Positions 3,769 to 32,000 are shown, counted from the stretch's first letter. The stretch: DNA of 32,000 nucleotides from Pseudodesulfovibrio mercurii (GCF_000189295.2 NC_016803.1:3810001-3842000), one strand, 5' to 3'. Translations and numbers: made by a program. Notes: generated by a model not told the origin, from the letters alone.

Positions 3769-4595
3769 GCGGAGGGCAGGAAGACCAGCTCCGGGACGCG
3801 TTCGATGATCCCGGTCTCCACCAGGCTTTCGTAGAAGGCCCGCATGCCCCGTTGCTCCTCGGGCCCGAGGTCGTAGACCAGGCCGTCGAAGTAGGAGCAC
3901 ATCTCCTCATCGTTCAGGCAGCTCTCCTCGGCGGCCATGACGCAGACGTCGGCGATGTTCTCCTCGCCCCAGTGCTTGCCCGCCAGGAGCAGATTCGCGG
4001 CCTGTTCCACCTTTTCCCTGTCCCGGTTCCAGCTTTCGCGGCTGACGATCCAGACGCCGAAGATGAACGGCAGGCCGGTCAGCTCGCGCCAGGCCTCGCC
4101 CAGGTCGATGCGGTAGGGATAGTCGGGGTGATAGCGCAGGTTCAGGGCCTCGTCGCCGATGCACAGGATGGCCTGGGGACGTTCCCCGGTGCCGAGGACG
4201 TCGGTGGCGCTGCCGGTGGTGAACACGGTCCGTATCTTCCACAATTTGGCCTGGAGCACGCGGAGCAGGGCGGCGGAGGTGTGGGTCTGGGCGCTGACCA
4301 GGATGGTCCTGCGGTCCAGTTCCTCCACCGGGCGGCGGCTCAGGAGCAGCACCGACTGCACCGGTCCCCGGCTGCCGATGGCGATGTCCGGGATGAGGTA
4401 GTACTTGTCCGCGTGGCGCGCGTATTCCACGCTGGACGCGGCGGACACGTCGAGGAGCCCGGCGTCCATGAGCCGGTTCAACTCGGCGGGCGGGCCCGAA
4501 GTGACCTCGCAGTCCATGGGCAGGATGCCGGTCTCCAGGGGATGGTAGATGGGCAGGACGTTGAGATAGCCGATCTTGCCGAGACGCACGCTCAT
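3765..4595 (-). CDS. mqnA: Chorismate dehydratase (futalosine pathway MqnA)
   Basis: 276 aa from the internal ATG (cat 4593-4595): MSVRLGKIGYLNVLPIYHPLE..., an MqnA/VitK2_biosynth-type N-terminus. TAATG overlap with the upstream radical-SAM gene. The 443-aa track ORF is an upstream extension running through that neighbour. Confidence 0.8.
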   Translation of the reverse strand: MSVRLGKIGYLNVLPIYHPLETGILPMDCEVTSGPPAELNRLMDAGLLDVSAASSVEYARHADKYYLIPDIAIGSRGPVQSVLLLSRRPVEELDRRTILVSAQTHTSAALLRVLQAKLWKIRTVFTTGSATDVLGTGERPQAILCIGDEALNLRYHPDYPYRIDLGEAWRELTGLPFIFGVWIVSRESWNRDREKVEQAANLLLAGKHWGEENIADVCVMAAEESCLNDEEMCSYFDGLVYDLGPEEQRGMRAFYESLVETGIIERVPELVFLPSA

Positions 4596-5665
4596 TATTC
4601 GGCCTCCAGAAGGGTATAGTCCATGGTCCGCTGCCGGGGGACGAACCCCGCGCCCCGGACCAGGCGGTGGATTTCCTCGCGGGACAGGCTGAAGGACACG
4701 CCCGCGGCCTTGACCACGTTCTCCTCGATCATGGTCGAGCCGAAGTCGTTGCCGCCGAAATACAGGGCCAGCTGGGCGATCTTGGGCCCCATGGTCACCC
4801 AGGAAACCTGGATGTTGTCCACATTGTCCAGGACGATGCGCGAGACGGCCAGGGTACGCAGGTACTCCACGCTGGTCAGCTTGCGGCAGCGAGGCAGGGC
4901 GGTGTGGTCGGGCTGGAAGGTCCAGGGGATGAAGGCCGTGAAGCCGTGGGTGCGGTCCTGGACCTCGCGCACCCGGAAGAGGTGTTCGAGCCGCTGGACC
5001 GGGGTCTCGAGGTGGCCGAACATCATGGTCGCGGTGGTCCGCAGCCCCTGGCGGTGGGCCTCCTCCATGACGCCGAGCCACTGGTCGGACGGACACTTGT
5101 TGGGAGCCACCCGGGAGCGGACCTCGTCCACCAGGATCTCGGCCCCGCCGCCGGGGATGGAGTCCAGCCCGGCCGCACGTAGCCGCCGGATGACCTCGGC
5201 CACGGAGAGACCTTCCCTGTTGGCCCAGAAGACCACCTCGGGCGGGGAAAAGGCGTGGATGTGCACGGGGTGCTCGGCCTTGATGAAGCGGAGCATGTCC
5301 TCGTACCAGGTCAGGGGCAGGTCCGGGTGGTGCCCGCCCTGCATGAGGATCTGGGTGCCGCCCAGGGCGATGGTCTCGTCGATCTTGCGTCCGATCTCTT
5401 CGAAGGAGAGCACGTAGCCGTCCGCTCCGCCGGGCTCGCGGTAGAACGCGCAGAACTTGCAGCAGCAGACGCAGACGTTGGAATAGTTGATGTTCCGGTC
5501 CACCACGTAGGTGACCACGGGCTCGGGATGCCTGCGCAGCCGCACCTGATGGGCCAACCGCCCCAGGTCGTGAAACTCCGCCTCAGCATACAGCGTCTCG
5601 GCCTCGTCGAACCCGATCCGCCCGCCGTCCAGAACCTTCCCATATATTTTTTCAAGCTCGCTCAT
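4595..5665 (-). CDS. mqnC: Radical SAM enzyme of the MqnC/MqnE family, most likely cyclic dehypoxanthinyl futalosine synthase (MqnC)
   Basis: 356 aa from the ATG at 5665 (SD AGGAGA 7 nt upstream). CxxxCxxC in NVCVCCCKFCAF. Motifs QGGHHPDLP, TATMMFGHLET and FTAFIPWTFQ fit my recollection of MqnC rather than MqnE. The paralog assignment was not verified by search. Confidence 0.65.
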   Translation of the reverse strand: MSELEKIYGKVLDGGRIGFDEAETLYAEAEFHDLGRLAHQVRLRRHPEPVVTYVVDRNINYSNVCVCCCKFCAFYREPGGADGYVLSFEEIGRKIDETIALGGTQILMQGGHHPDLPLTWYEDMLRFIKAEHPVHIHAFSPPEVVFWANREGLSVAEVIRRLRAAGLDSIPGGGAEILVDEVRSRVAPNKCPSDQWLGVMEEAHRQGLRTTATMMFGHLETPVQRLEHLFRVREVQDRTHGFTAFIPWTFQPDHTALPRCRKLTSVEYLRTLAVSRIVLDNVDNIQVSWVTMGPKIAQLALYFGGNDFGSTMIEENVVKAAGVSFSLSREEIHRLVRGAGFVPRQRTMDYTLLEAE

Positions 5666-5700: not shown

Positions 5701-5810
5701 CCCGCGAAGCGGCGCCAAAGAGTTTGGGAAAAGGTGGGGATGGGGGTCCGGGGGAAGGGGAGGAAAGAACCCTTTTCAAAGGTTTTTCCCTTCCCCCGGC
5801 CGCCGGAGGC
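5701..5810 (+). repeat. Structured dispersed repeat, copy A (forward orientation)
   Basis: CCCGCGAAGCGG..AAAGAGTTTGGGA..GGGGATGGGGGTCCGGGGGAAGGGG..imperfect hairpin..CCCCCGGCCGCCGGAGGC. Aligns over its length with copies at 10147-10263 and 30194-30308 and with the reverse complement of 9947-10075, 18277-18447 and 30026-30115. Confidence 0.9.
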
Positions 5811-5811
5811 A

Positions 5812-6906
5812 TTACACCTCGTTGAAAAAGCCGTCGCGTTCGACGGGGGTGCAGCCGCAGCCCCGGATCATGTTGGTCAGTTCGGACCGGGACAGCCCCT
5901 GTTCCGAGGTGGCCCCGGCCTCGTGGCCGATCTTTTCCTCGACCACCGTGCCGTCGAAGTCGTCGGCCCCGAACTTGAGGGCGGCCTGGGCCTGTTTGAC
6001 CCCGAGCATGACCCAGTAGGCCTTGATGTGCGGGATGTTGTCGAGGAGCAGCCGGGATACAGCGATGGTCTTGAGCTCCTCCAGGCCGGTCAACGGGTTG
6101 TCGATCCTGAGTTTGCTGTTCTCGGTCAGGAAGGGCAGGGGGATGAAACAGGTGTACCCGTGCGCCCGGTCCTGGGATTCGCGCAGGCGGATGAGGTGGT
6201 CCACGCGGTCCTCGACGGCCTCGATGTGCCCGAAGAGCATGGTCGCGTTGGTCCTGATGCCCAACCCGTGGGCTTCCTCGTGGATGGCCAGCCACTCGTC
6301 GGCCGTGGCCTTGCGCGGGCAGAGTTGTTCGCGCACCGAAGGGGCGAATATCTCGGCCCCGCCGCCGGCCAGCATGCCCAGCCCGGCCGTTTGCAGGCGG
6401 ACCAGGACCTCGCGGGTCGGGACGCCTTCCAGGCGGGCGAAGTGGGCGATCTCCACGGCGGTGAAACACTTGAGGACCGCGTCCGGGTAGCGGTCGCGCA
6501 CGGCGGCGAGGATGTCCTCGAAATAGGCCAGGCCGAGCTTCGGGTGGCAGCCGCCGACGATGTGCACCTCGCGCGGCGGGAGCGGGGCGGCGGCGAGCTT
6601 GGCCAGGACGTCGTCGCGGGTCAGGACGAAGCCGCCGGACTGGCCTTCCTCGCGCTGGTAGGCGCAGAACACGCAGCCGTTGACGCAGACGTTGGTGTAG
6701 TTGACGTGGCGGTTGACCACGTAGAAGGCCTTGTCGCCGTGCAGCCGGGTGCGCACGCGATGGGCCAGCGCGCCCACGGCCAGGGGCTCGGGGCAGCGGA
6801 ACAGGCGCACGCCGTCGTCGAAGGACAGGCGCTCGCCCGCCTCGACCTTGTCGCGCACGTCGGCCAGGCCCATGTTGTCGAAATAGTCGCTTTTGAACAG
6901 GTTCAT
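5812..6906 (-). CDS. mqnE: Radical SAM enzyme of the MqnC/MqnE family, most likely aminodeoxyfutalosine synthase (MqnE)
   Basis: 364 aa from the ATG at 6906 (AGGAG 7 nt upstream, inside the tetR 3' end). CVNGCVFC radical-SAM motif. FIPLPF, HIKAYWVMLG and VVEEKIGHEAG resemble MqnE-type sequences as I recall them. Not verified by search. Confidence 0.65.
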   Translation of the reverse strand: MNLFKSDYFDNMGLADVRDKVEAGERLSFDDGVRLFRCPEPLAVGALAHRVRTRLHGDKAFYVVNRHVNYTNVCVNGCVFCAYQREEGQSGGFVLTRDDVLAKLAAAPLPPREVHIVGGCHPKLGLAYFEDILAAVRDRYPDAVLKCFTAVEIAHFARLEGVPTREVLVRLQTAGLGMLAGGGAEIFAPSVREQLCPRKATADEWLAIHEEAHGLGIRTNATMLFGHIEAVEDRVDHLIRLRESQDRAHGYTCFIPLPFLTENSKLRIDNPLTGLEELKTIAVSRLLLDNIPHIKAYWVMLGVKQAQAALKFGADDFDGTVVEEKIGHEAGATSEQGLSRSELTNMIRGCGCTPVERDGFFNEV

Positions 6907-6910
6907 GCGG

Positions 6911-7549
6911 TTACTCCTGTGAAGGGATGTCGGCCAGGCCGTGGCGCAGGAAGGCGGCCAGGGCGCGGGCCAGGTCCGGCAGGGAGGCGGCGGGCGCGAG
7001 CCCGTTGTCCAGGGAGGGCACGGCATAGCCCTGGATGAAGCGGTCCATGACCGCGTGCAGGGTGAACACGGCCATGTCCACGTCCAGTGCGGCGGGCAGC
7101 TGGCCCGCCCGGATGCCGTCCTCGATGAGCTGCCGGAGGTACTTGGCGTGCGCGCCCCGGATCTCGCCGAGGAACCGTTCGCGCAGGGGGAAATTCTCGT
7201 TGAAGAGCATCTTCAGATAGATGCGGTACAGGTTGGGGTGGTCGTCCACGAACCGGGTCCCGGCCAGGAAGCTCATCTCCATGCGCTCGAAGAAGTCCAG
7301 GCCCGGCGTGTCGCGGATGACCTTGAGAGGCTTCTTGAACCCGGCCACGGCGCGACTGAAGATGTGCTCGAACAGCCCCTGCTTGTTGCCGAAATACTTG
7401 AACAGCGAACCCTTGGCGATGCCCAGACGGTCCACGATGCGGTTGACCGAGGCCTGGTGGTAGCCGTACTCGGCGAACTCCACGGTGGCCTCGTCCAGGA
7501 CGCGCCGCCGCTTCTCCTCGGGCAGGTTCTCAAAGGTGTTTTTTGTCAA
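6911..7549 (-). CDS. TetR/AcrR-family transcriptional regulator, first gene of the mqn operon
   Basis: HTH region RRRVLDEATVEFAEYGYHQASVNRIVDRLGIAKGSLFKYFGNKQGLF. Preferred start is TTG at 7549 (GGGAG 7 nt upstream). The alternative ATG at 7612 would put the first codons inside the 20-bp palindrome. The stop is 4 nt before the mqnE ATG. Confidence 0.8.
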   Translation of the reverse strand: MTKNTFENLPEEKRRRVLDEATVEFAEYGYHQASVNRIVDRLGIAKGSLFKYFGNKQGLFEHIFSRAVAGFKKPLKVIRDTPGLDFFERMEMSFLAGTRFVDDHPNLYRIYLKMLFNENFPLRERFLGEIRGAHAKYLRQLIEDGIRAGQLPAALDVDMAVFTLHAVMDRFIQGYAVPSLDNGLAPAASLPDLARALAAFLRHGLADIPSQE

Positions 7550-9405: not shown

Positions 9406-9572
9406 GAACGACTCCTGCGGATGTGATCGAATCGTCTACCATTGTTCACGGTTGAAGGGAATGGCGTGGGCCATCATATATTCGGATGGCGGCCATCCGC
9501 GCGGGGCCCGGAACGTGAAAAGGGCCCCGCTCGCGCAGGACCCTTTTCACGGTGTTCTATGAAATGCTCGCC

Positions 9573-9842
9573 CTAGTGGGGGCAGACGGCCAGGACGTTG
9601 ACGGGCTTGAAGCCGTTGTCCGGATCCTCGGCGTAGCGGCAGCCCAGGTGGGAATCGTCGCGCTTGTGCAGGATGTCGGTCTCGGAACTGAGATAATGCG
9701 GACAATTGTTGTTGTTGCAGATGAGGATGACGCCCCAGCCAGTTTCGGGCGGCGCCAGCCAGGGGTCCAGCCGTTGGCCGCAATGCGGACAGTTCTTGTC
9801 GGGCAACTCGGTGACGATGCCCGCGTATTCATGAATGACCAT
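9573..9842 (-). CDS. Small Cys-rich protein (89 aa), putative zinc-ribbon; function unknown
   Basis: ATG at 9842 lies 8 nt after AAGGAG. The upstream ATG at 9860 overlaps that SD. Contains CPHCG, CNNNNCPH and a C-terminal CPH. No family recognised. Confidence 0.55.
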   Translation of the reverse strand: MVIHEYAGIVTELPDKNCPHCGQRLDPWLAPPETGWGVILICNNNNCPHYLSSETDILHKRDDSHLGCRYAEDPDNGFKPVNVLAVCPH

Positions 9843-9895
9843 CGCTGTATCTCCTTGCATGCGGCAACTGAAGCCGTCGTTTTATCGATGGATAC

Positions 9896-9923
9896 AAAAT
9901 AATCCCCCAACCCCCGCCGTCAA
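9896..9923 (-). promoter_or_regulatory. Candidate sigma70-type promoter for the Cys-rich ORF
   Basis: Minus strand reads TTGACG (9923-9918), a 16-nt spacer, then TATTTT (9901-9896), about 55 nt upstream of the ATG. Confidence 0.3.
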
Positions 9924-9946
9924 CCCCATGGGGTTGTTTTTTTATC

Positions 9947-10075
9947 GCCTCCGGCGGCCAGGGGGAAAGGGGAGAGGGGGAACCTTTTGAGAAAAAGGTT
10001 CCCCCTCTCCCCTTTCCCCCTGGACCCCCCAATCCCCCTCTCTCCCTCCCAAACTTTTTGGTTCCGCTTCGCGGG
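9947..10075 (-). repeat. Structured dispersed repeat, copy B1 (reverse orientation)
   Basis: GCCTCCGGCGGCC, then a perfect 28-bp hairpin (9961-9988 / 9993-10020, loop GAGA), then a C-tract block, AAACTTTTTGG and CCGCTTCGCGG. Confidence 0.9.
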
Positions 10076-10146
10076 ATGCGAACGCGGGGGCTTTTTCGTG
10101 CTTGTTATCCGCTATCCGGGCACGGCTTCGCGCGCCCGCACGCCTT

Positions 10147-10263
10147 CCGCGCAGCGGCGATAAAAAGTTTAGGAAGGAAAGGGAGATGAGGGCCCGGGGG
10201 AAGGGGGAAAGGGAAGCCCTTTTCAAAGGGTTCCCTTTCCCCCTTCCCTCGGCCGCTGGAGGC
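10147..10263 (+). repeat. Structured dispersed repeat, copy B2 (forward orientation); forms an inverted pair with B1
   Basis: CCGCGCAGCGGCG ATAAAAAGTTTAGGAAGG...GGGCCCGGGGGAAGGGGGAAAGGGAAGCCCTTTTCAAAGGGTTCCCTTTCCCCCTTCCC..GGCCGCTGGAGGC. Ends 5 nt from the yjgA stop codon. Confidence 0.9.
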
Positions 10264-18213: not shown

Positions 18214-18235
18214 CCGATCACGCGATACGAATAAC

Positions 18236-18270
18236 CCCCCCCGTCCGGTTAACCGGGCGGGGGTTTTTTA
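18236..18270 (+). terminator. Rho-independent terminator of putA
   Basis: About 10-bp GC-rich stem (18238-18247 / 18254-18263, one G-U pair) around GTTAAC, followed by T6 (18264-18269). Confidence 0.75.
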
Positions 18271-18276
18271 TTCGTT

Positions 18277-18447
18277 GCCTCCGGGCCTCCAGCCGTTGGC
18301 GGGTCTTGAGCATTACGGATGAGGACAGCAGCGATCGGCTGGGGGAAGGGGGGAAGGGGACCCTTTGAGAAAAGGGTTCCCTTCCCCCCTTCCTCCGGAC
18401 CTCCATCCCCTCATCCTTCCTAAACTTTTTGGCGCCGCTTCGCGGGG
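18277..18447 (-). repeat. Structured dispersed repeat, copy C (reverse orientation, with ~55-nt internal insertion)
   Basis: GCCTCCGG at 18277, extra segment 18285-18339, then GGGGAAGGGGGGAAGGGGACCCTTTGAGAAAAGGGTTCCCTTCCCCCCTTCC hairpin, a C-tract block, TAAACTTTTTGG and CCGCTTCGCGGGG. Confidence 0.85.
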
Positions 18448-28497: not shown

Positions 28498-29148
28498 CTA
28501 TTTGCAGGCGTCCTGAAACGCCTTGTGCCGCTCGCCGTAGGGCGGATGCTTGAAGAAGGCCGAGCCGGACACGAGCACGTCCACGCCCGCCTCGGTCAGT
28601 TCGCGCGCGTTGTCCAGGGTCACGCCGCCGTCGATCTGGATCAGGGTGTCGGCCCCGGCCCGGTCGATCATGGCCTTGAGGTCGCGGACCTTGTCCAGGC
28701 AGAAGGGGATGAACTTCTGGCCGCCGAAGCCGGGGTTCACGGACATGATCAGGACCATGTACAGCTGCGGCAGGAGATAGCGGATGGCCTCGGGCGGGGT
28801 GTGCGGATTGAGCGCCACGGCGGGCTTGGCCCCGGCCTCGACGATCTGGGCGCAGACCCGCTCCAGGTGGGTGCACGCCTCGGCGTGGACGCAGATCAGG
28901 TCGGCCCCGGCGTCGGCGAAGTCGCCGATGTACCGGCCGGGATCGTTGATCATCAGGTGGCAGTCGAAGAAGAGCTTCGACTTGGCGCGCATGGCCTTGA
29001 TGATCGGCGGGCCGAAGGTGATGTTGGGCACGAACATGCCGTCCATGACGTCCAGGTGGACCCAGGACAGGCCCGCGGCTTCCAGGGCCTTGAGCTCGGT
29101 TTCCATGTTGGCGAAGTCCGAGGAAAGCATGGAGGGGGAAAGAATCAT
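28498..29148 (-). CDS. rpe: Ribulose-phosphate 3-epimerase
   Basis: 216 aa: ILSPSMLSSDF...HLDVMDGMFVPNITFG...MSVNPGFGGQKFI...IDGG. Confidence 0.95.
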   Translation of the reverse strand: MILSPSMLSSDFANMETELKALEAAGLSWVHLDVMDGMFVPNITFGPPIIKAMRAKSKLFFDCHLMINDPGRYIGDFADAGADLICVHAEACTHLERVCAQIVEAGAKPAVALNPHTPPEAIRYLLPQLYMVLIMSVNPGFGGQKFIPFCLDKVRDLKAMIDRAGADTLIQIDGGVTLDNARELTEAGVDVLVSGSAFFKHPPYGERHKAFQDACK

Positions 29149-29228: not shown

Positions 29229-29555
29229 TCAGGGCTGGTCGGTGATCAGCCGCTCGGACGCGTAGCCGAGCAGCCCGCCGAGGACCAGGTTGATGCCCAC
29301 CACCTGGAGCACGCCCAGGGGAGCGTCGGGGTGGAGCAGGATGCCCAGGGGCAGGGCGGTCAGCACGGCGATGAGCATGCCCGTGGCCCAGCTCTCCAGC
29401 GGCATGCGGGCGAAGGCGATGATGATGCTCAACCCCAGCCAGTGGAGCAGGATCGCGGCCACGGCCTGCAACGGGACGTCCAGGAAGACCATGGGGATGG
29501 CGTTCAGGATGCCCGCGGCCAGCCCGAGCAGCAGAATCTTGTACATCTTGTGCAT
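29229..29555 (-). CDS. Small integral membrane protein (108 aa, ~4 TM segments), function unknown
   Basis: The ATG at 29555 is preceded by AGGGAG and starts 13 nt after the ahbA stop. Strongly hydrophobic segments. No family recognised. Confidence 0.55.
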   Translation of the reverse strand: MHKMYKILLLGLAAGILNAIPMVFLDVPLQAVAAILLHWLGLSIIIAFARMPLESWATGMLIAVLTALPLGILLHPDAPLGVLQVVGINLVLGGLLGYASERLITDQP

Positions 29556-29568
29556 GGGCCCGGTCTCC

Positions 29569-30018
29569 CTACTTGTCCATCTTGAAATCGACCTTGATCT
29601 TGAACAGCTTGTACGCCGGGAGGTTGAGCACCTTGATGCCCGTGGCCTCGGTGATGGAGGCCAGGATTTCCTCCACCGCGTCCATGTCCGGGGCGATGAG
29701 CGCGAACCAGACGTTGAAATCATTCTCGCGCAGGTAGTTGTGCGTCACGCCGTCGTGCCGGTTGACCTCGGCCACGAACGCGTCCAGACGGTCCTCGGGC
29801 ACCGAGGCCGCGCACAGGGTGGACTGCCAGCCCAGGGTGTTGGAGTTGAAGTTCGCCCCCATGCGCCGGATCAGCCCGGACGCCTTCATGGCCCGAACGC
29901 GATCGAGCACCTCGGCCTCGGTCAAACCCACCCGCTCGCCGACCTCCGCATACGGACGGGACGCCAACGGGAAATGGGACTGGATGATGTCGAGTATCTG
30001 CTTGTCGTAATTGTCCAT
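29569..30018 (-). CDS. ahbA: Siroheme decarboxylase subunit (AhbA/AhbB, NirD/L/G/H-like AsnC-type fold)
   Basis: 149 aa: MDNYDKQILDIIQSHFPLASRPYAEVGERVGLTEAEVLDRVRAMKASGLIRR..., then a GVTHNYLR-type C-terminal half. ahbA is chosen over ahbB from my recollection of the Desulfovibrio vulgaris order ahbA-ahbD-hemB-ahbC. Confidence 0.7.
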   Translation of the reverse strand: MDNYDKQILDIIQSHFPLASRPYAEVGERVGLTEAEVLDRVRAMKASGLIRRMGANFNSNTLGWQSTLCAASVPEDRLDAFVAEVNRHDGVTHNYLRENDFNVWFALIAPDMDAVEEILASITEATGIKVLNLPAYKLFKIKVDFKMDK

Positions 30019-30025
30019 GAAGCAT

Positions 30026-30115
30026 GCCTCCGGCGGCCAGGGGGGAAACCCTTTGAAAAGGGTTGTCCCCCCTGGACCCCCCTTCCTAAACTTTTTTTAT
30101 CGCGCCTTCGGCGGG
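30026..30115 (-). repeat. Structured dispersed repeat, copy E1 (reverse orientation, short form)
   Basis: GCCTCCGGCGGCCAGGGGGGAAACCCTTTGAAAAGGGTTGTCCCCCCTGGACCCCCCTTCCTAAACTTTTTTTATCGCGCCTTCGGCGGG. Confidence 0.85.
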
Positions 30116-30193
30116 TGCGTCGGCGCGCGATACATTTTCCTTCAATTACCGTCCCCCGGTCAAGCGGCACATCCTCCCGTCATCCCCCTACCT

Positions 30194-30308
30194 CCGCGAA
30201 GCGGCGTAAAAAGTTTAGGAGGGGAGAGGGGATGGGGGTCCGGGGGAAGGGGAGAGGGAAACCCTTTTCAAAGGGTTCCCCTCTCCCCTTCCCCCGGCCG
30301 CCGGAGGC
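30194..30308 (+). repeat. Structured dispersed repeat, copy E2 (forward orientation); forms an inverted pair with E1
   Basis: CCGCGAAGCGGCGTAAAAAGTTTAGGAGGGGAGAGGGGATGGGGGTCC, then a 24/25-bp hairpin (30242-30266 / 30271-30295, loop TTCA), then GGCCGCCGGAGGC. Ends 1 nt from the ahbD stop. Confidence 0.9.

Positions 30309-31510: not shown

Positions 31511-32000
<490 letters not shown>

Follow-up and report, generated by a model that had tools for sequence, protein, structure and literature searches.

A gene-boundary repeat of Pseudodesulfovibrio mercurii and other bacteria whose three covarying blocks suggest selection for triple-helix-forming potential

What kind of element has been multiplied among the housekeeping genes of Pseudodesulfovibrio mercurii, and which of its features is kept by selection? 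A 32,000-nt stretch of this genome (NC_016803.1:3810001-3842000; hereafter, the window) had been said in a preliminary description to hold six copies of a structured intergenic repeat, and direct reading and alignment confirmed the positions and strands of all six (designated here A to F; Table 1). We observed that three consecutive blocks of this repeat, all in one strand, vary jointly between copies: the pyrimidine arm of a long hairpin (S3) is the reverse complement of the purine arm (S5), and U, the G-rich block that immediately precedes the hairpin on its 5' side, mirrors S5. This three-way covariation suggests that triple-helix-forming potential is under selection, and the comparative support for such a selected fold appears unusually strong.

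The six copies are alignable over ~110 nt, and a search of the 32,000-nt window for AAAAGTTTRGGA (the A-box), with at most one mismatch allowed, returned six matches, all of them the reported copies, against 0.03 expected. In the top strand, the repeat consists of a C(GAA)G mini-hairpin, the A-box AAAAAGTTT, which is the best-conserved block in the family, the purine block U, a T-CC turn, S5, the loop, S3 and, in Desulfovibrionaceae, the tail GGCCGCCGGAGGC, which is exact or has one mismatch in copies A, B, C, E and F; in copy D, a ~50-nt insert precedes the GGAGGC end. The long hairpins described earlier are present, with 31 pairs and no mismatches in copy B and 26 pairs and one mismatch in copy F, and the hairpins of the remaining copies contain 25 pairs and 3 mismatches (C and D), 15 and 3 (E), and 14 and 4 (A). 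Folded as DNA, the elements yield -27 to -55 kcal/mol, with z-scores between -2.5 and -10; in the centroid folds, produced by tools that model Watson-Crick pairs only, U is unpaired.

The existence of many more copies elsewhere was borne out by a pattern scan of species-representative genomes, in which the matches listed are a lower bound. Within the blocks examined, Desulfovibrio (Pseudodesulfovibrio) caledoniensis has at least 26 copies, and among the matches listed are copies in P. karagichevae, P. pelocollis, Bilophila and several metagenome-assembled genomes (MAGs) of Desulfovibrionaceae, along with copies of a shorter form in Nitratidesulfovibrio and, unexpectedly, at least 35 blocks of one long-contig Candidatus Glassbacteria MAG that carry the family. 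The family is widespread, non-coding and intergenic, and it is present in at least two phyla. Common to all copies are AAAAGTTT(A/G)GGA, GGGGG-T/C-CC-GGGGG and the hairpin tip CC(C)TTTTCAAA(A)GG, to which the Desulfovibrionaceae copies add the 5' C(GAA)G mini-hairpin (52 of ~60 copies) and the 3' tail. Among the 103 parsed copies with intact, near-perfect hairpins, 99 distinct cores were found: the family is old and has diversified, and it is not the product of a recent burst. In the searchable literature, we found no description of the family or of its signature strings.

The statement that both hairpin arms change together stood up to scrutiny: in the RNAalifold consensus of 23 long-type copies, 11 of the 29 pairs show changes on both sides, and each of the 63 distinct purine arms across taxa comes with a matching pyrimidine arm. 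The preliminary description had recorded U as a G-tract block of the shared layout, but it overlooked the mirror relation of this block to the purine arm, the polarity of the repeat toward gene boundaries and the role of GGAGG as a Shine-Dalgarno site. Followed from the TCC turn in the reverse direction, U repeats S5, including its irregularities. Thus, at locus L018 (loci outside the window carry L numbers), S5 reads GGGGG-AA-GGGGG-AAA-GGG-AAG and reversed U reads GGGGG-TA-GGGGG-AAA-GGG-AGG; at L007, both read ...GGGG-AGAG-GG...; at L047 and in copy A, ...GGGG-A-GG-AAAG in S5 corresponds to ...GGGG-A/T-GG-AAAA in reversed U; in copy B, an AAA spacer followed by AGAG-GGGGG corresponds to a TTA spacer followed by AGAGAG-GG; L020 has six G in both blocks; the Nitratidesulfovibrio copies differ by GG versus GGG in both; and Glassbacteria L019 and L074 have GAGAG in place of GGGAG in both. 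The spacers AGAG, AAA, AA and AGGAAAG and the runs of five versus six G agree across U, S5 and S3.

When 86 distinct copies were anchored at the linker and compared without gaps, 82% of the positions were compatible with the triads G*G, A*A and T*A, compared with 48-65% when the register was shifted by 1-3 nt and 41-52% when U was taken in the direct orientation; the triad counts were 861 for G*G, 310 for A*A, 179 for T*A and 88 for all others. The U/S5 score was 0.669 within the same copy versus 0.527 across copies, and none of 5000 permutations attained the same-copy score. As an independent check, U was recoded such that each allowed triad counts as a base pair (G as C, A as T, T unchanged, C as A) and subjected to pair-counting in 58 distinct copies: 11 of the 15 mirrored positions showed coordinated change, with 97 coordinated cells versus 39.6 +/- 5.1 in shuffled sets (0 of 500) and 6-36 in slid registers. 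After the G-U class, which corresponds to A or T over G, was dropped, truly allowed triads made up 758 of 870 cells (87%). Opposite A or the rare C interruptions, U has T and almost never C, and compatibility of the third strand is 94% under the purine motif versus 81% under the pyrimidine motif of the complementary strand or RNA.

Inverted repeats can arise through replication or template switching, and a dimeric duplex-binding protein would read an inverted repeat, not a mirror repeat. We know of no replication or template-switching mechanism that yields a homopurine mirror repeat, and, to our knowledge, triplex formation is the only structural rationale for such a repeat. The arrangement R-turn-R-loop-Y in one strand fits the definition of a class I intrastrand purine-motif triplex given by Hoyne/Maher and by Holder et al.; the complementary strand is of class III (PMC4666352). 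The order of the present repeat, U(R)-TCC-S5(R)-loop-S3(Y), is the class I order, the turn between the purine blocks is 3 nt long, and the repeat has the sequence features of potential intrastrand triplexes in general, namely, two Watson-Crick blocks, a third block that follows the antiparallel triad rules, and short loops.

We propose that the selected trait is the ability of the top strand to fold twice when it becomes single-stranded, that is, when DNA is exposed by replication, transcription or transfer. S5 and S3 would form a duplex, and U would run back along S5 in antiparallel orientation to provide the third strand through reverse-Hoogsteen contacts (G*G.C, A*A.T, T*A.T). The product would be an intrastrand purine-motif triplex of class I with a stable mini-hairpin on either side; as duplex DNA, the same sequence would amount to an H-DNA mirror repeat overlapping a cruciform. 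Under this proposal, the family would act as a selfish or structural repeat, as do BoxC/PIT/TMECO and REP, spreading through copying or conversion between sites. Copies would persist only with the duplex/GGAGGC end set against the nearest constrained sequence, be it a stop codon, the T-run of a terminator or a start codon, and, upstream of genes, GGAGG would be taken over as the ribosome-binding site. The proneness of such a structure to stalling would also account for deletions inside the element and for the large number of decayed copies. For this explanation as a whole, a triplex-capable selfish or structural repeat docked at gene boundaries, we put the probability at about 0.5.

That the fold would belong to the top DNA strand, rather than to the complementary strand or to RNA, is favored by the T residues of U opposite A, given that T*A.T is allowed and the complementary A would be mismatched. 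It is also favored by the C(GNA)G triloop mini-hairpins that lie, in the same strand, at both ends of the Desulfovibrionaceae element (CCGC-GAA-GCGG and GCC-GGA-GGC), as such triloops are reportedly (Hirao; Yoshizawa) unusually stable as DNA. Purine-motif triplexes do not form in RNA (PMC4666352).

Several considerations weigh against the triplex explanation. The copies are related by descent, so that the shuffle statistics overstate their independence; the register and orientation controls are not affected by this relatedness. The mirror match is imperfect, holding at ~82-87% of the positions and at fewer in many Glassbacteria copies. The K+ concentrations of cells disfavor G-rich third strands, and G-quadruplexes are an alternative fold open to the long types. 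The final G-run of U in Desulfovibrionaceae has the tail as another possible partner (GG.GG.CC with GG-CC.G.CC), and this pairing extends the stem; in copy B, the tail GGCC(GCC) is likewise able to lengthen the stem by pairing with GG(G)GG-T-CC. Transcription covers the element in both orientations, which leaves a role in RNA possible. The explanation accounts neither for the mechanism of copying nor for the cause of the polarity, and both the fold and its action at the DNA level are what we infer from the logic of the sequence. Even for TMECO, Holder et al. go no further than to leave room for transient triplex formation in vivo (PMC4666352).

The polarity is pronounced. With genes called in all loci by a codon-usage model trained on the same loci, no copy was located inside a called gene, and the S3/GGAGGC end was the gene-proximal one in 44 of the 47 Desulfovibrionaceae copies (p = 2.5e-10), with a median gap to the gene of 27 nt versus 188 nt at the 5' end; the S3 end was likewise gene-proximal in 36 of the 43 Glassbacteria copies (p = 9e-6). 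This end faces a stop codon, often 1-15 nt away (1 nt in A and F, 5 nt in C), or a canonical terminator at its T-run (D, L011, L035, L114 and L121), or a start codon. In ~10 copies that face a start codon, E included, GGAGG is 6-10 nt before the ATG, at Shine-Dalgarno spacing. In copy E, GGAGG lies 8 nt upstream of the ATG of an AhbA/B-like gene and probably serves this gene as the Shine-Dalgarno site; the arrangement is retained at the orthologous site in two other genomes (L094 and L016). Among co-directional spacers, there was no bias with respect to the direction of transcription (17 'same' versus 14 'anti'), and divergent promoter regions hold only 2 of the 47 Desulfovibrionaceae copies. 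Candidate causes of the polarity are polar choice of the target, polar erosion of unconstrained DNA beside a stalling-prone structure, and a function that requires the duplex part to adjoin an open reading frame (ORF).

A more ambitious reading, which we hold only tentatively and rate as doubtful, is that of a dedicated gene-boundary element, present in two or more phyla, that is selected for a true intramolecular DNA triple helix and acts directionally. Such a helix would comprise up to ~24 triads, its purine strand may switch at the hairpin tip, and the element could be a polar barrier, a hotspot of recombination or deletion, or a recognition site for a copying enzyme; directional action would explain why one end faces the gene. 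The length of the T-run in the A-box correlates with the composition of the tip (rho 0.35 and -0.39, n=84), with TTTT found in six copies only, a weak signal from which we would tentatively suggest that the A-box prolongs the third strand across the tip, the purines switching to S3 (G over C.G, T over T.A). Should the more ambitious reading be correct, the three-way covariation would be, as far as we know, the first evidence of a comparative, evolutionary kind for the importance of triplex formation in vivo.

The remaining alternatives are taken here in decreasing order of probability, beginning with a REP-like hairpin that acts in RNA, its stem blocking exonucleases or RNase E and stabilizing the 3' or 5' end of mRNA, and U being a spacer or a by-product. 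We consider this unlikely: the stems are very stable, the hairpin adjoins the ORF boundary in both orientations and the copies are in transcribed intergenic regions, with E in a 5' untranslated region conserved across three genomes, but a mirror, not direct, U that covaries with S5 is left unexplained, as is the occurrence of the same blocks in another phylum, and, furthermore, B and D lie behind separate canonical terminators and many copies are decayed. The resemblance to REP, BIME and REPIN, which RAYT (TnpA-REP) transposases mobilize, is that of short, structured, palindromic extragenic repeats that often form inverted doublets, lie at the 3' ends of genes and are favored targets of particular insertion sequences. 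By contrast, the hairpin of the present family is much longer and purine/pyrimidine-asymmetric, a mirror block is added, doublets are not the amplified unit, and GTAG, which in REP/REPIN is conserved at the 5' end ahead of a palindrome of 20-40 nt, is seen at neither end in the alignments. REP/REPIN also go with a cognate RAYT gene for a Y1 transposase, usually with REPs on its flanks. As had been noted before, the window encodes no transposase, RAYT or integrase domain in the 30 genes covered by a Pfam scan, which took in all called genes of the window except the three at 28498-29130, 29229-29555 and 31511-31999.

Rather improbable is a duplex-DNA element, H-DNA or cruciform, that responds to supercoiling and serves as a topological or regulatory insulator. 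U and S5 form the homopurine mirror repeat that is the defining requirement of H-DNA (PMC4666352), with the short centre typical of homopurine.homopyrimidine mirror repeats, and the copies are at gene boundaries; however, H-DNA needs only U and S5, so that S3 in the same strand and the flanking mini-hairpins have no explanation, and the rarity of copies in divergent promoter regions shows no bias of the kind expected. The complementary pyrimidine arm that follows in the same strand sets the present family apart from H-DNA repeats and makes the triplex formable from a single strand, without melting of the neighboring duplex.

RNA triple helices that protect 3' ends are known in the ENE of PAN and MALAT1, where U.A-U triples are made with the A-rich tail. 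An analogous alternative is a class III, pyrimidine-motif triplex of the complementary strand or RNA (R-loop-Y-GGA-Y; C+*G.C, U*A.U) that buries the 3' tail. In common with ENE, the present element combines a hairpin with an adjacent strand able to lie in the groove and is found just after many stop codons: in ~60% of the copies, R-Y-Y comes right after the stop codon of the upstream gene in the transcript, and pyrimidine-motif triplexes can form in RNA (PMC4666352). Here, however, the triples would be G-rich, and the bases found in U agree more closely with the purine motif of DNA than with any motif of RNA: T in U becomes a mismatching A, hence the 81% versus 94% compatibility given above. 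Besides, long C+ runs require acidic pH and ~40% of the copies are in the other orientation, so we regard this alternative as improbable.

A G-quadruplex element, in which GGGG-AT-GGGGG-TCC-GGGGG-AA-GGGG competes with the hairpin, would suit the long-type copies, with their four or more G-runs and loops of 2-3 nt. We consider it very improbable inasmuch as the short types (E, L094, L041 and type 3 with GAGAG) have either two G-runs or none at all and yet retain the mirror and inverted logic, covariation reaches A-spacers and distal blocks that a quadruplex does not need, and S5 is locked in a stem of -27 to -55 kcal/mol. Least probable by far is a classical miniature inverted-repeat transposable element (MITE), with the pairs B+C and E+F as the ends of one non-autonomous transposon mobilized by a DDE transposase encoded elsewhere: head-to-head pairs do recur (twice in the window and in L084, L020 and L035), but the subtypes differ within pairs, lone members occupy orthologous sites, single copies are far commoner than pairs, and there are no consistent terminal inverted repeats or target-site duplications.

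The spacers of these pairs have the lengths reported earlier, 71 nt for B/C and 78 nt for E/F, but the MITE-like units of 283-317 bp that the preliminary description had derived from them found no support, given that the partners are of different subtypes (E short, F long) and are present singly in relatives. Each copy turns its GGAGGC end to its own flanking gene, which would produce the head-to-head arrangement, and each pair appears to be two independent copies, each docked to its own neighbor. P. pelocollis has the short E and lacks F, B and C; F is truncated in the MAG MIC098Bin4; and L041 has one copy at the site where L084 has a pair. In ~100 copies, no terminal inverted repeat or target duplication was positionally consistent, and the inverted matches in the flanks were short and copy-specific; a TGATCC...GGATCA pair considered as terminal inverted repeats in some Glassbacteria copies proved inconsistent. 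MITEs with structured cores (Correia/NEMIS, RUP, ERIC) resemble the present family in being non-coding intergenic sequences of 100-170 nt able to donate expression signals, and differ from it in having terminal inverted repeats, target-site duplications and a related autonomous insertion sequence. A separate observation concerns the minus-strand transcript of E/F, in which GCCUCCGGCGGCC of F is exactly complementary to GGCCGCCGGAGGC of E, so that the pair could fold as one giant hairpin; such a hairpin could sequester the Shine-Dalgarno site of the AhbA/B-like gene.

Turnover is visible in the comparison of related genomes. In flank-to-flank BLAST comparisons (75-92% identity, at which junctions are unreadable), orthologous sites were filled, empty or occupied by a different subtype, and presence or absence was seen for single copies; the 'empty' site L031 more likely reflects deletion because both its closest relative L082 and the outgroup L044 are filled. 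Different subtypes with all three blocks changed occupy orthologous sites in A versus L064, in L031 (long) versus L044 (short) and in E (GGGGGG) versus L016 (GAGAGA); identical cores come with different mini-hairpins; and the D subtype with its ~50-nt insert recurs beside a different gene in P. karagichevae (L040). These swaps, the mixed mini-hairpins and the recurring D subtype point to replacement or conversion of copies that stay at fixed positions. Decayed copies are common; in L012, L013, L015 and the L094 orthologue of F, a deletion between GGGGAGG and CCGGAGG has removed the hairpin. At L054, the U-TCC-S5 segment is tandemly duplicated (GGGGATGGGGGTCCGGGGGAAGGGGAGAGAG twice), which is consistent with slippage within the mirror repeat.

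An IS481-family element encoding a 390-aa transposase with HTH_32, rve and rve_3 domains, and with the ends TGTACAGCCCGGGTAC...GGTTGCACA, is inserted in the distal part of S5 in at least 8 loci of 3 genomes (L034, L021, L022, L051, L068, L087, L107 and L112), with nearly identical position and the same orientation throughout. A GGGG target duplication at L034 is probably its work, and this element appears to prefer the repeat as its target. Many draft contigs of P. karagichevae start or stop inside the repeat or the IS481 element (L008, L022, L023, L029 and L068, and also L103, L070, L077, L099 and L102), which implies a high copy number and fragmentation of short-read assemblies by the repeat.

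Among known systems, the closest kind is BoxC/PIT/TMECO, from E. coli and other Proteobacteria. PIT (potential intrastrand triplex) elements were reportedly described by Hoyne et al. in 2000. TMECO is an intergenic element, also found as inverted ('palindromic') pairs, that adopts a triplex in vitro and is a marker of unstable loci (Holder et al. 2015; PMC4666352). BoxC/PIT/TMECO and the present family are both G/C-rich and intergenic, and they share three consecutive blocks in one strand, two purine and one pyrimidine, and a 3-nt turn (PMC4666352); both are multicopy and non-coding, sometimes form inverted pairs and are found where loci are variable or unstable, and for neither is a mobilizing enzyme known. 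Nevertheless, the present family is not a member, on account of the absent consensus, class I order, longer stems, extra modules and a polarity unreported for BoxC. Specifically, the TMECO consensus CCCTCNCCC-N3-6-GGGNGAGGG-N3-GGGNGAGGG has no match in either strand of the window, and there is no sequence similarity; the block order is R-R-Y with the third strand 5' (class I) versus Y-R-R (class II, the reverse-Hoogsteen purine block being 3') in TMECO; the stems of 8-24 nt are two to three times longer than the 9 nt of TMECO; the mini-hairpin, A-box and GGAGG tail are additional; polarity to the neighboring gene contrasts with the lack of any reported correlation of BoxC with gene orientation or function; and three-way covariation over subfamilies and phyla is seen in the present family. 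The ITxF paper does not mention Desulfovibrio in the main text, and only one D. magneticus plasmid is listed in its supplement.

Several further repeats accompany the family. Directly 5' of the mini-hairpin in L030, L073, L075, L121 and L040, there is a second repeat family, CTTCCGATAGCGGCGCATCTGCACATTTTTTCC...GGGTGCTGCGCACCCGAATCGCTCC..., of ~190 nt, which ends in a canonical intrinsic terminator 10-15 nt ahead of the mini-hairpin, has no Rfam match and resembles a small transcription unit present in several copies. Glassbacteria loci (e.g., L086, L100, L110, L113, L053 and L010, L088, L090, L109) have additional modules 50-250 nt 5' of the core, in a mosaic, BIME-like arrangement (e.g., GCCGCGGTGGCGGCTACGCCGCCTGGGGGTGAAAG... 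and GTAGCGGCGGGTTTGAAACCCGCCGCTACGGC). Of two viral matches, L123:9-45, at the extreme end of a predicted viral (IMG/VR) contig with 61% G+C, is a true copy of the Desulfovibrionaceae type, and L122 is a chance match. The mini-hairpin as a pre-existing insertion target received no support: of 170 mini-hairpins, 52 are linked to elements and ~21 are the element's own 3' tail, with ~70 expected in total, so orphans are just mildly above expectation; identical cores do carry different mini-hairpins, which leaves the idea some standing.

The window (~65% G+C) contains housekeeping genes: rpsK-rpsD-rpoA-rplQ, a LysR regulator, mqn genes, an EamA transporter, DarP, the Mla system, PutA, TetR regulators, a SulP transporter, two-component systems, an ABC-F protein and ahb genes; the 30 genes covered by the Pfam scan are housekeeping throughout. 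A 189-nt direct repeat with 70% identity stems from the paralogous CofH/MqnC-type radical-SAM genes, between which copy A is located. The repeat was rejected as an intrinsic terminator, as in neither orientation does a T-run follow the long hairpin, and B and D lie behind terminators of their own; in particular, putA has its own terminator, so that copy D is not needed as one there. The terminator-like hairpin adjoining the GGAGGC end of copy B lies between this copy and the start of the minus-strand 89-aa gene; no plus-strand gene is upstream, and the codon statistics of the plus-strand ORF are those of non-coding sequence. Coding potential of the conserved GGGGATGGGGG 'ATG' was ruled out, this ATG being missing from B, L084 and all Glassbacteria and short copies. 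An IS200/IS605-derived PATE was rejected as well, since the D. caledoniensis chromosome shows no replication-linked strand switch (16 plus and 10 minus copies, intermixed along the coordinate) and the two end hairpins are unrelated. Rfam searches of the window and 7 loci gave no match at the gathering threshold, and by E-value returned merely generic long-hairpin (miRNA precursor) matches, all sub-threshold; a search of the window for tRNA and tmRNA found none.

Table 1. Positions of the six repeat copies, their parts and associated features (window coordinates unless a locus is given)
Feature	Position	Strand	Remark
Copy A	5701-5810	+	whole element, long type
A mini-hairpin	5701-5713	+	
A A-box	5717-5725	+	
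A U	5726-5746	+	third-strand block
A linker	5747	+	T
A hairpin	5748-5799	+	
A tail	5800-5810	+	CCGCCGGAGGC
mqnC-like radical-SAM gene, stop codon	5812-5814	-	faces copy A tail
Copy B	9947-10075	-	whole element, long type
B mini-hairpin	10064-10075	-	5' CCCGCGAAGCGG, C-GAA-G triloop
B A-box	10051-10059	-	AAAAAGTTT
B U	10025-10050	-	purine block GGGAGGGAGAGAGGGGGATTGGGGGG; mirror image of purine arm, proposed third strand
B linker	10024	-	T, GG-T-CC turn
B hairpin	9958-10023	-	purine arm S5, loop, pyrimidine arm S3
B tail	9947-9957	-	3' CCGCCGGAGGC
Copy C	10147-10263	+	whole element, long type
C mini-hairpin	10147-10158	+	
C A-box	10162-10170	+	
C U	10171-10192	+	
C linker	10193	+	C
C hairpin	10194-10252	+	
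C tail	10253-10263	+	
DarP gene, stop codon	10269-10271	-	faces copy C tail
Copy D	18277-18446	-	whole element, just beyond putA terminator
D mini-hairpin	18434-18446	-	
D A-box	18422-18430	-	
D U	18400-18421	-	
D linker	18399	-	
D hairpin	18339-18398	-	followed by ~50-nt insert
D end	18277-18290	-	GGAGGCCCGGAGGC
Copy E	30026-30114	-	whole element, short type
E mini-hairpin	30102-30114	-	
E A-box	30088-30098	-	
E U	30077-30087	-	
E linker	30076	-	
E hairpin	30037-30075	-	
E tail	30026-30036	-	
AhbA/B-like gene, ATG	30018-30016		
Copy F	30194-30308	+	whole element, long type
F mini-hairpin	30194-30205	+	
F A-box	30208-30216	+	
F U	30217-30238	+	
F linker	30239	+	
F hairpin	30240-30297	+	
F tail	30298-30308	+	
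Radical-SAM/SPASM gene, stop codon	30310-30312	-	faces copy F tail
Possible giant E/F hairpin	30026-30308	-	
putA intrinsic terminator	18235-18270	+	canonical, G+C hairpin and T-run, between stop codon and copy D
Terminator-like hairpin and T-run	9922-9943	+	adjoins copy B GGAGGC end
89-aa gene	9573-9842	-	
ORF, non-coding statistics	9552-9902	+	
189-nt direct repeat	4903-5091 and 6117-6305		
CofH/MqnC-type radical-SAM genes	4595-5665 and 5812-7026	-	paralogous
IS481-family insertion	L034:4860-6148		
Tandem U-TCC-S5 duplication	L054:355-480		

For annotation, the repeat apparently supplies the ribosome-binding site of real genes, such as the AhbA/B-like gene at 30018, breaks draft assemblies and attracts an IS481-family insertion sequence. 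Its polarity toward ORF boundaries has no counterpart in the reports on REP or BoxC elements. Whether intramolecular triplexes form, or are selected, in living bacteria has been a standing question since PIT elements were described in 2000, and the E. coli family is too uniform to provide covariation evidence. The family described here supplies natural triple mutants by the dozen, with compensatory changes in U, S5 and S3 together, with 8-24 triads, from two phyla, and these graded natural variants make the triplex question directly testable with oligonucleotides and reporters.

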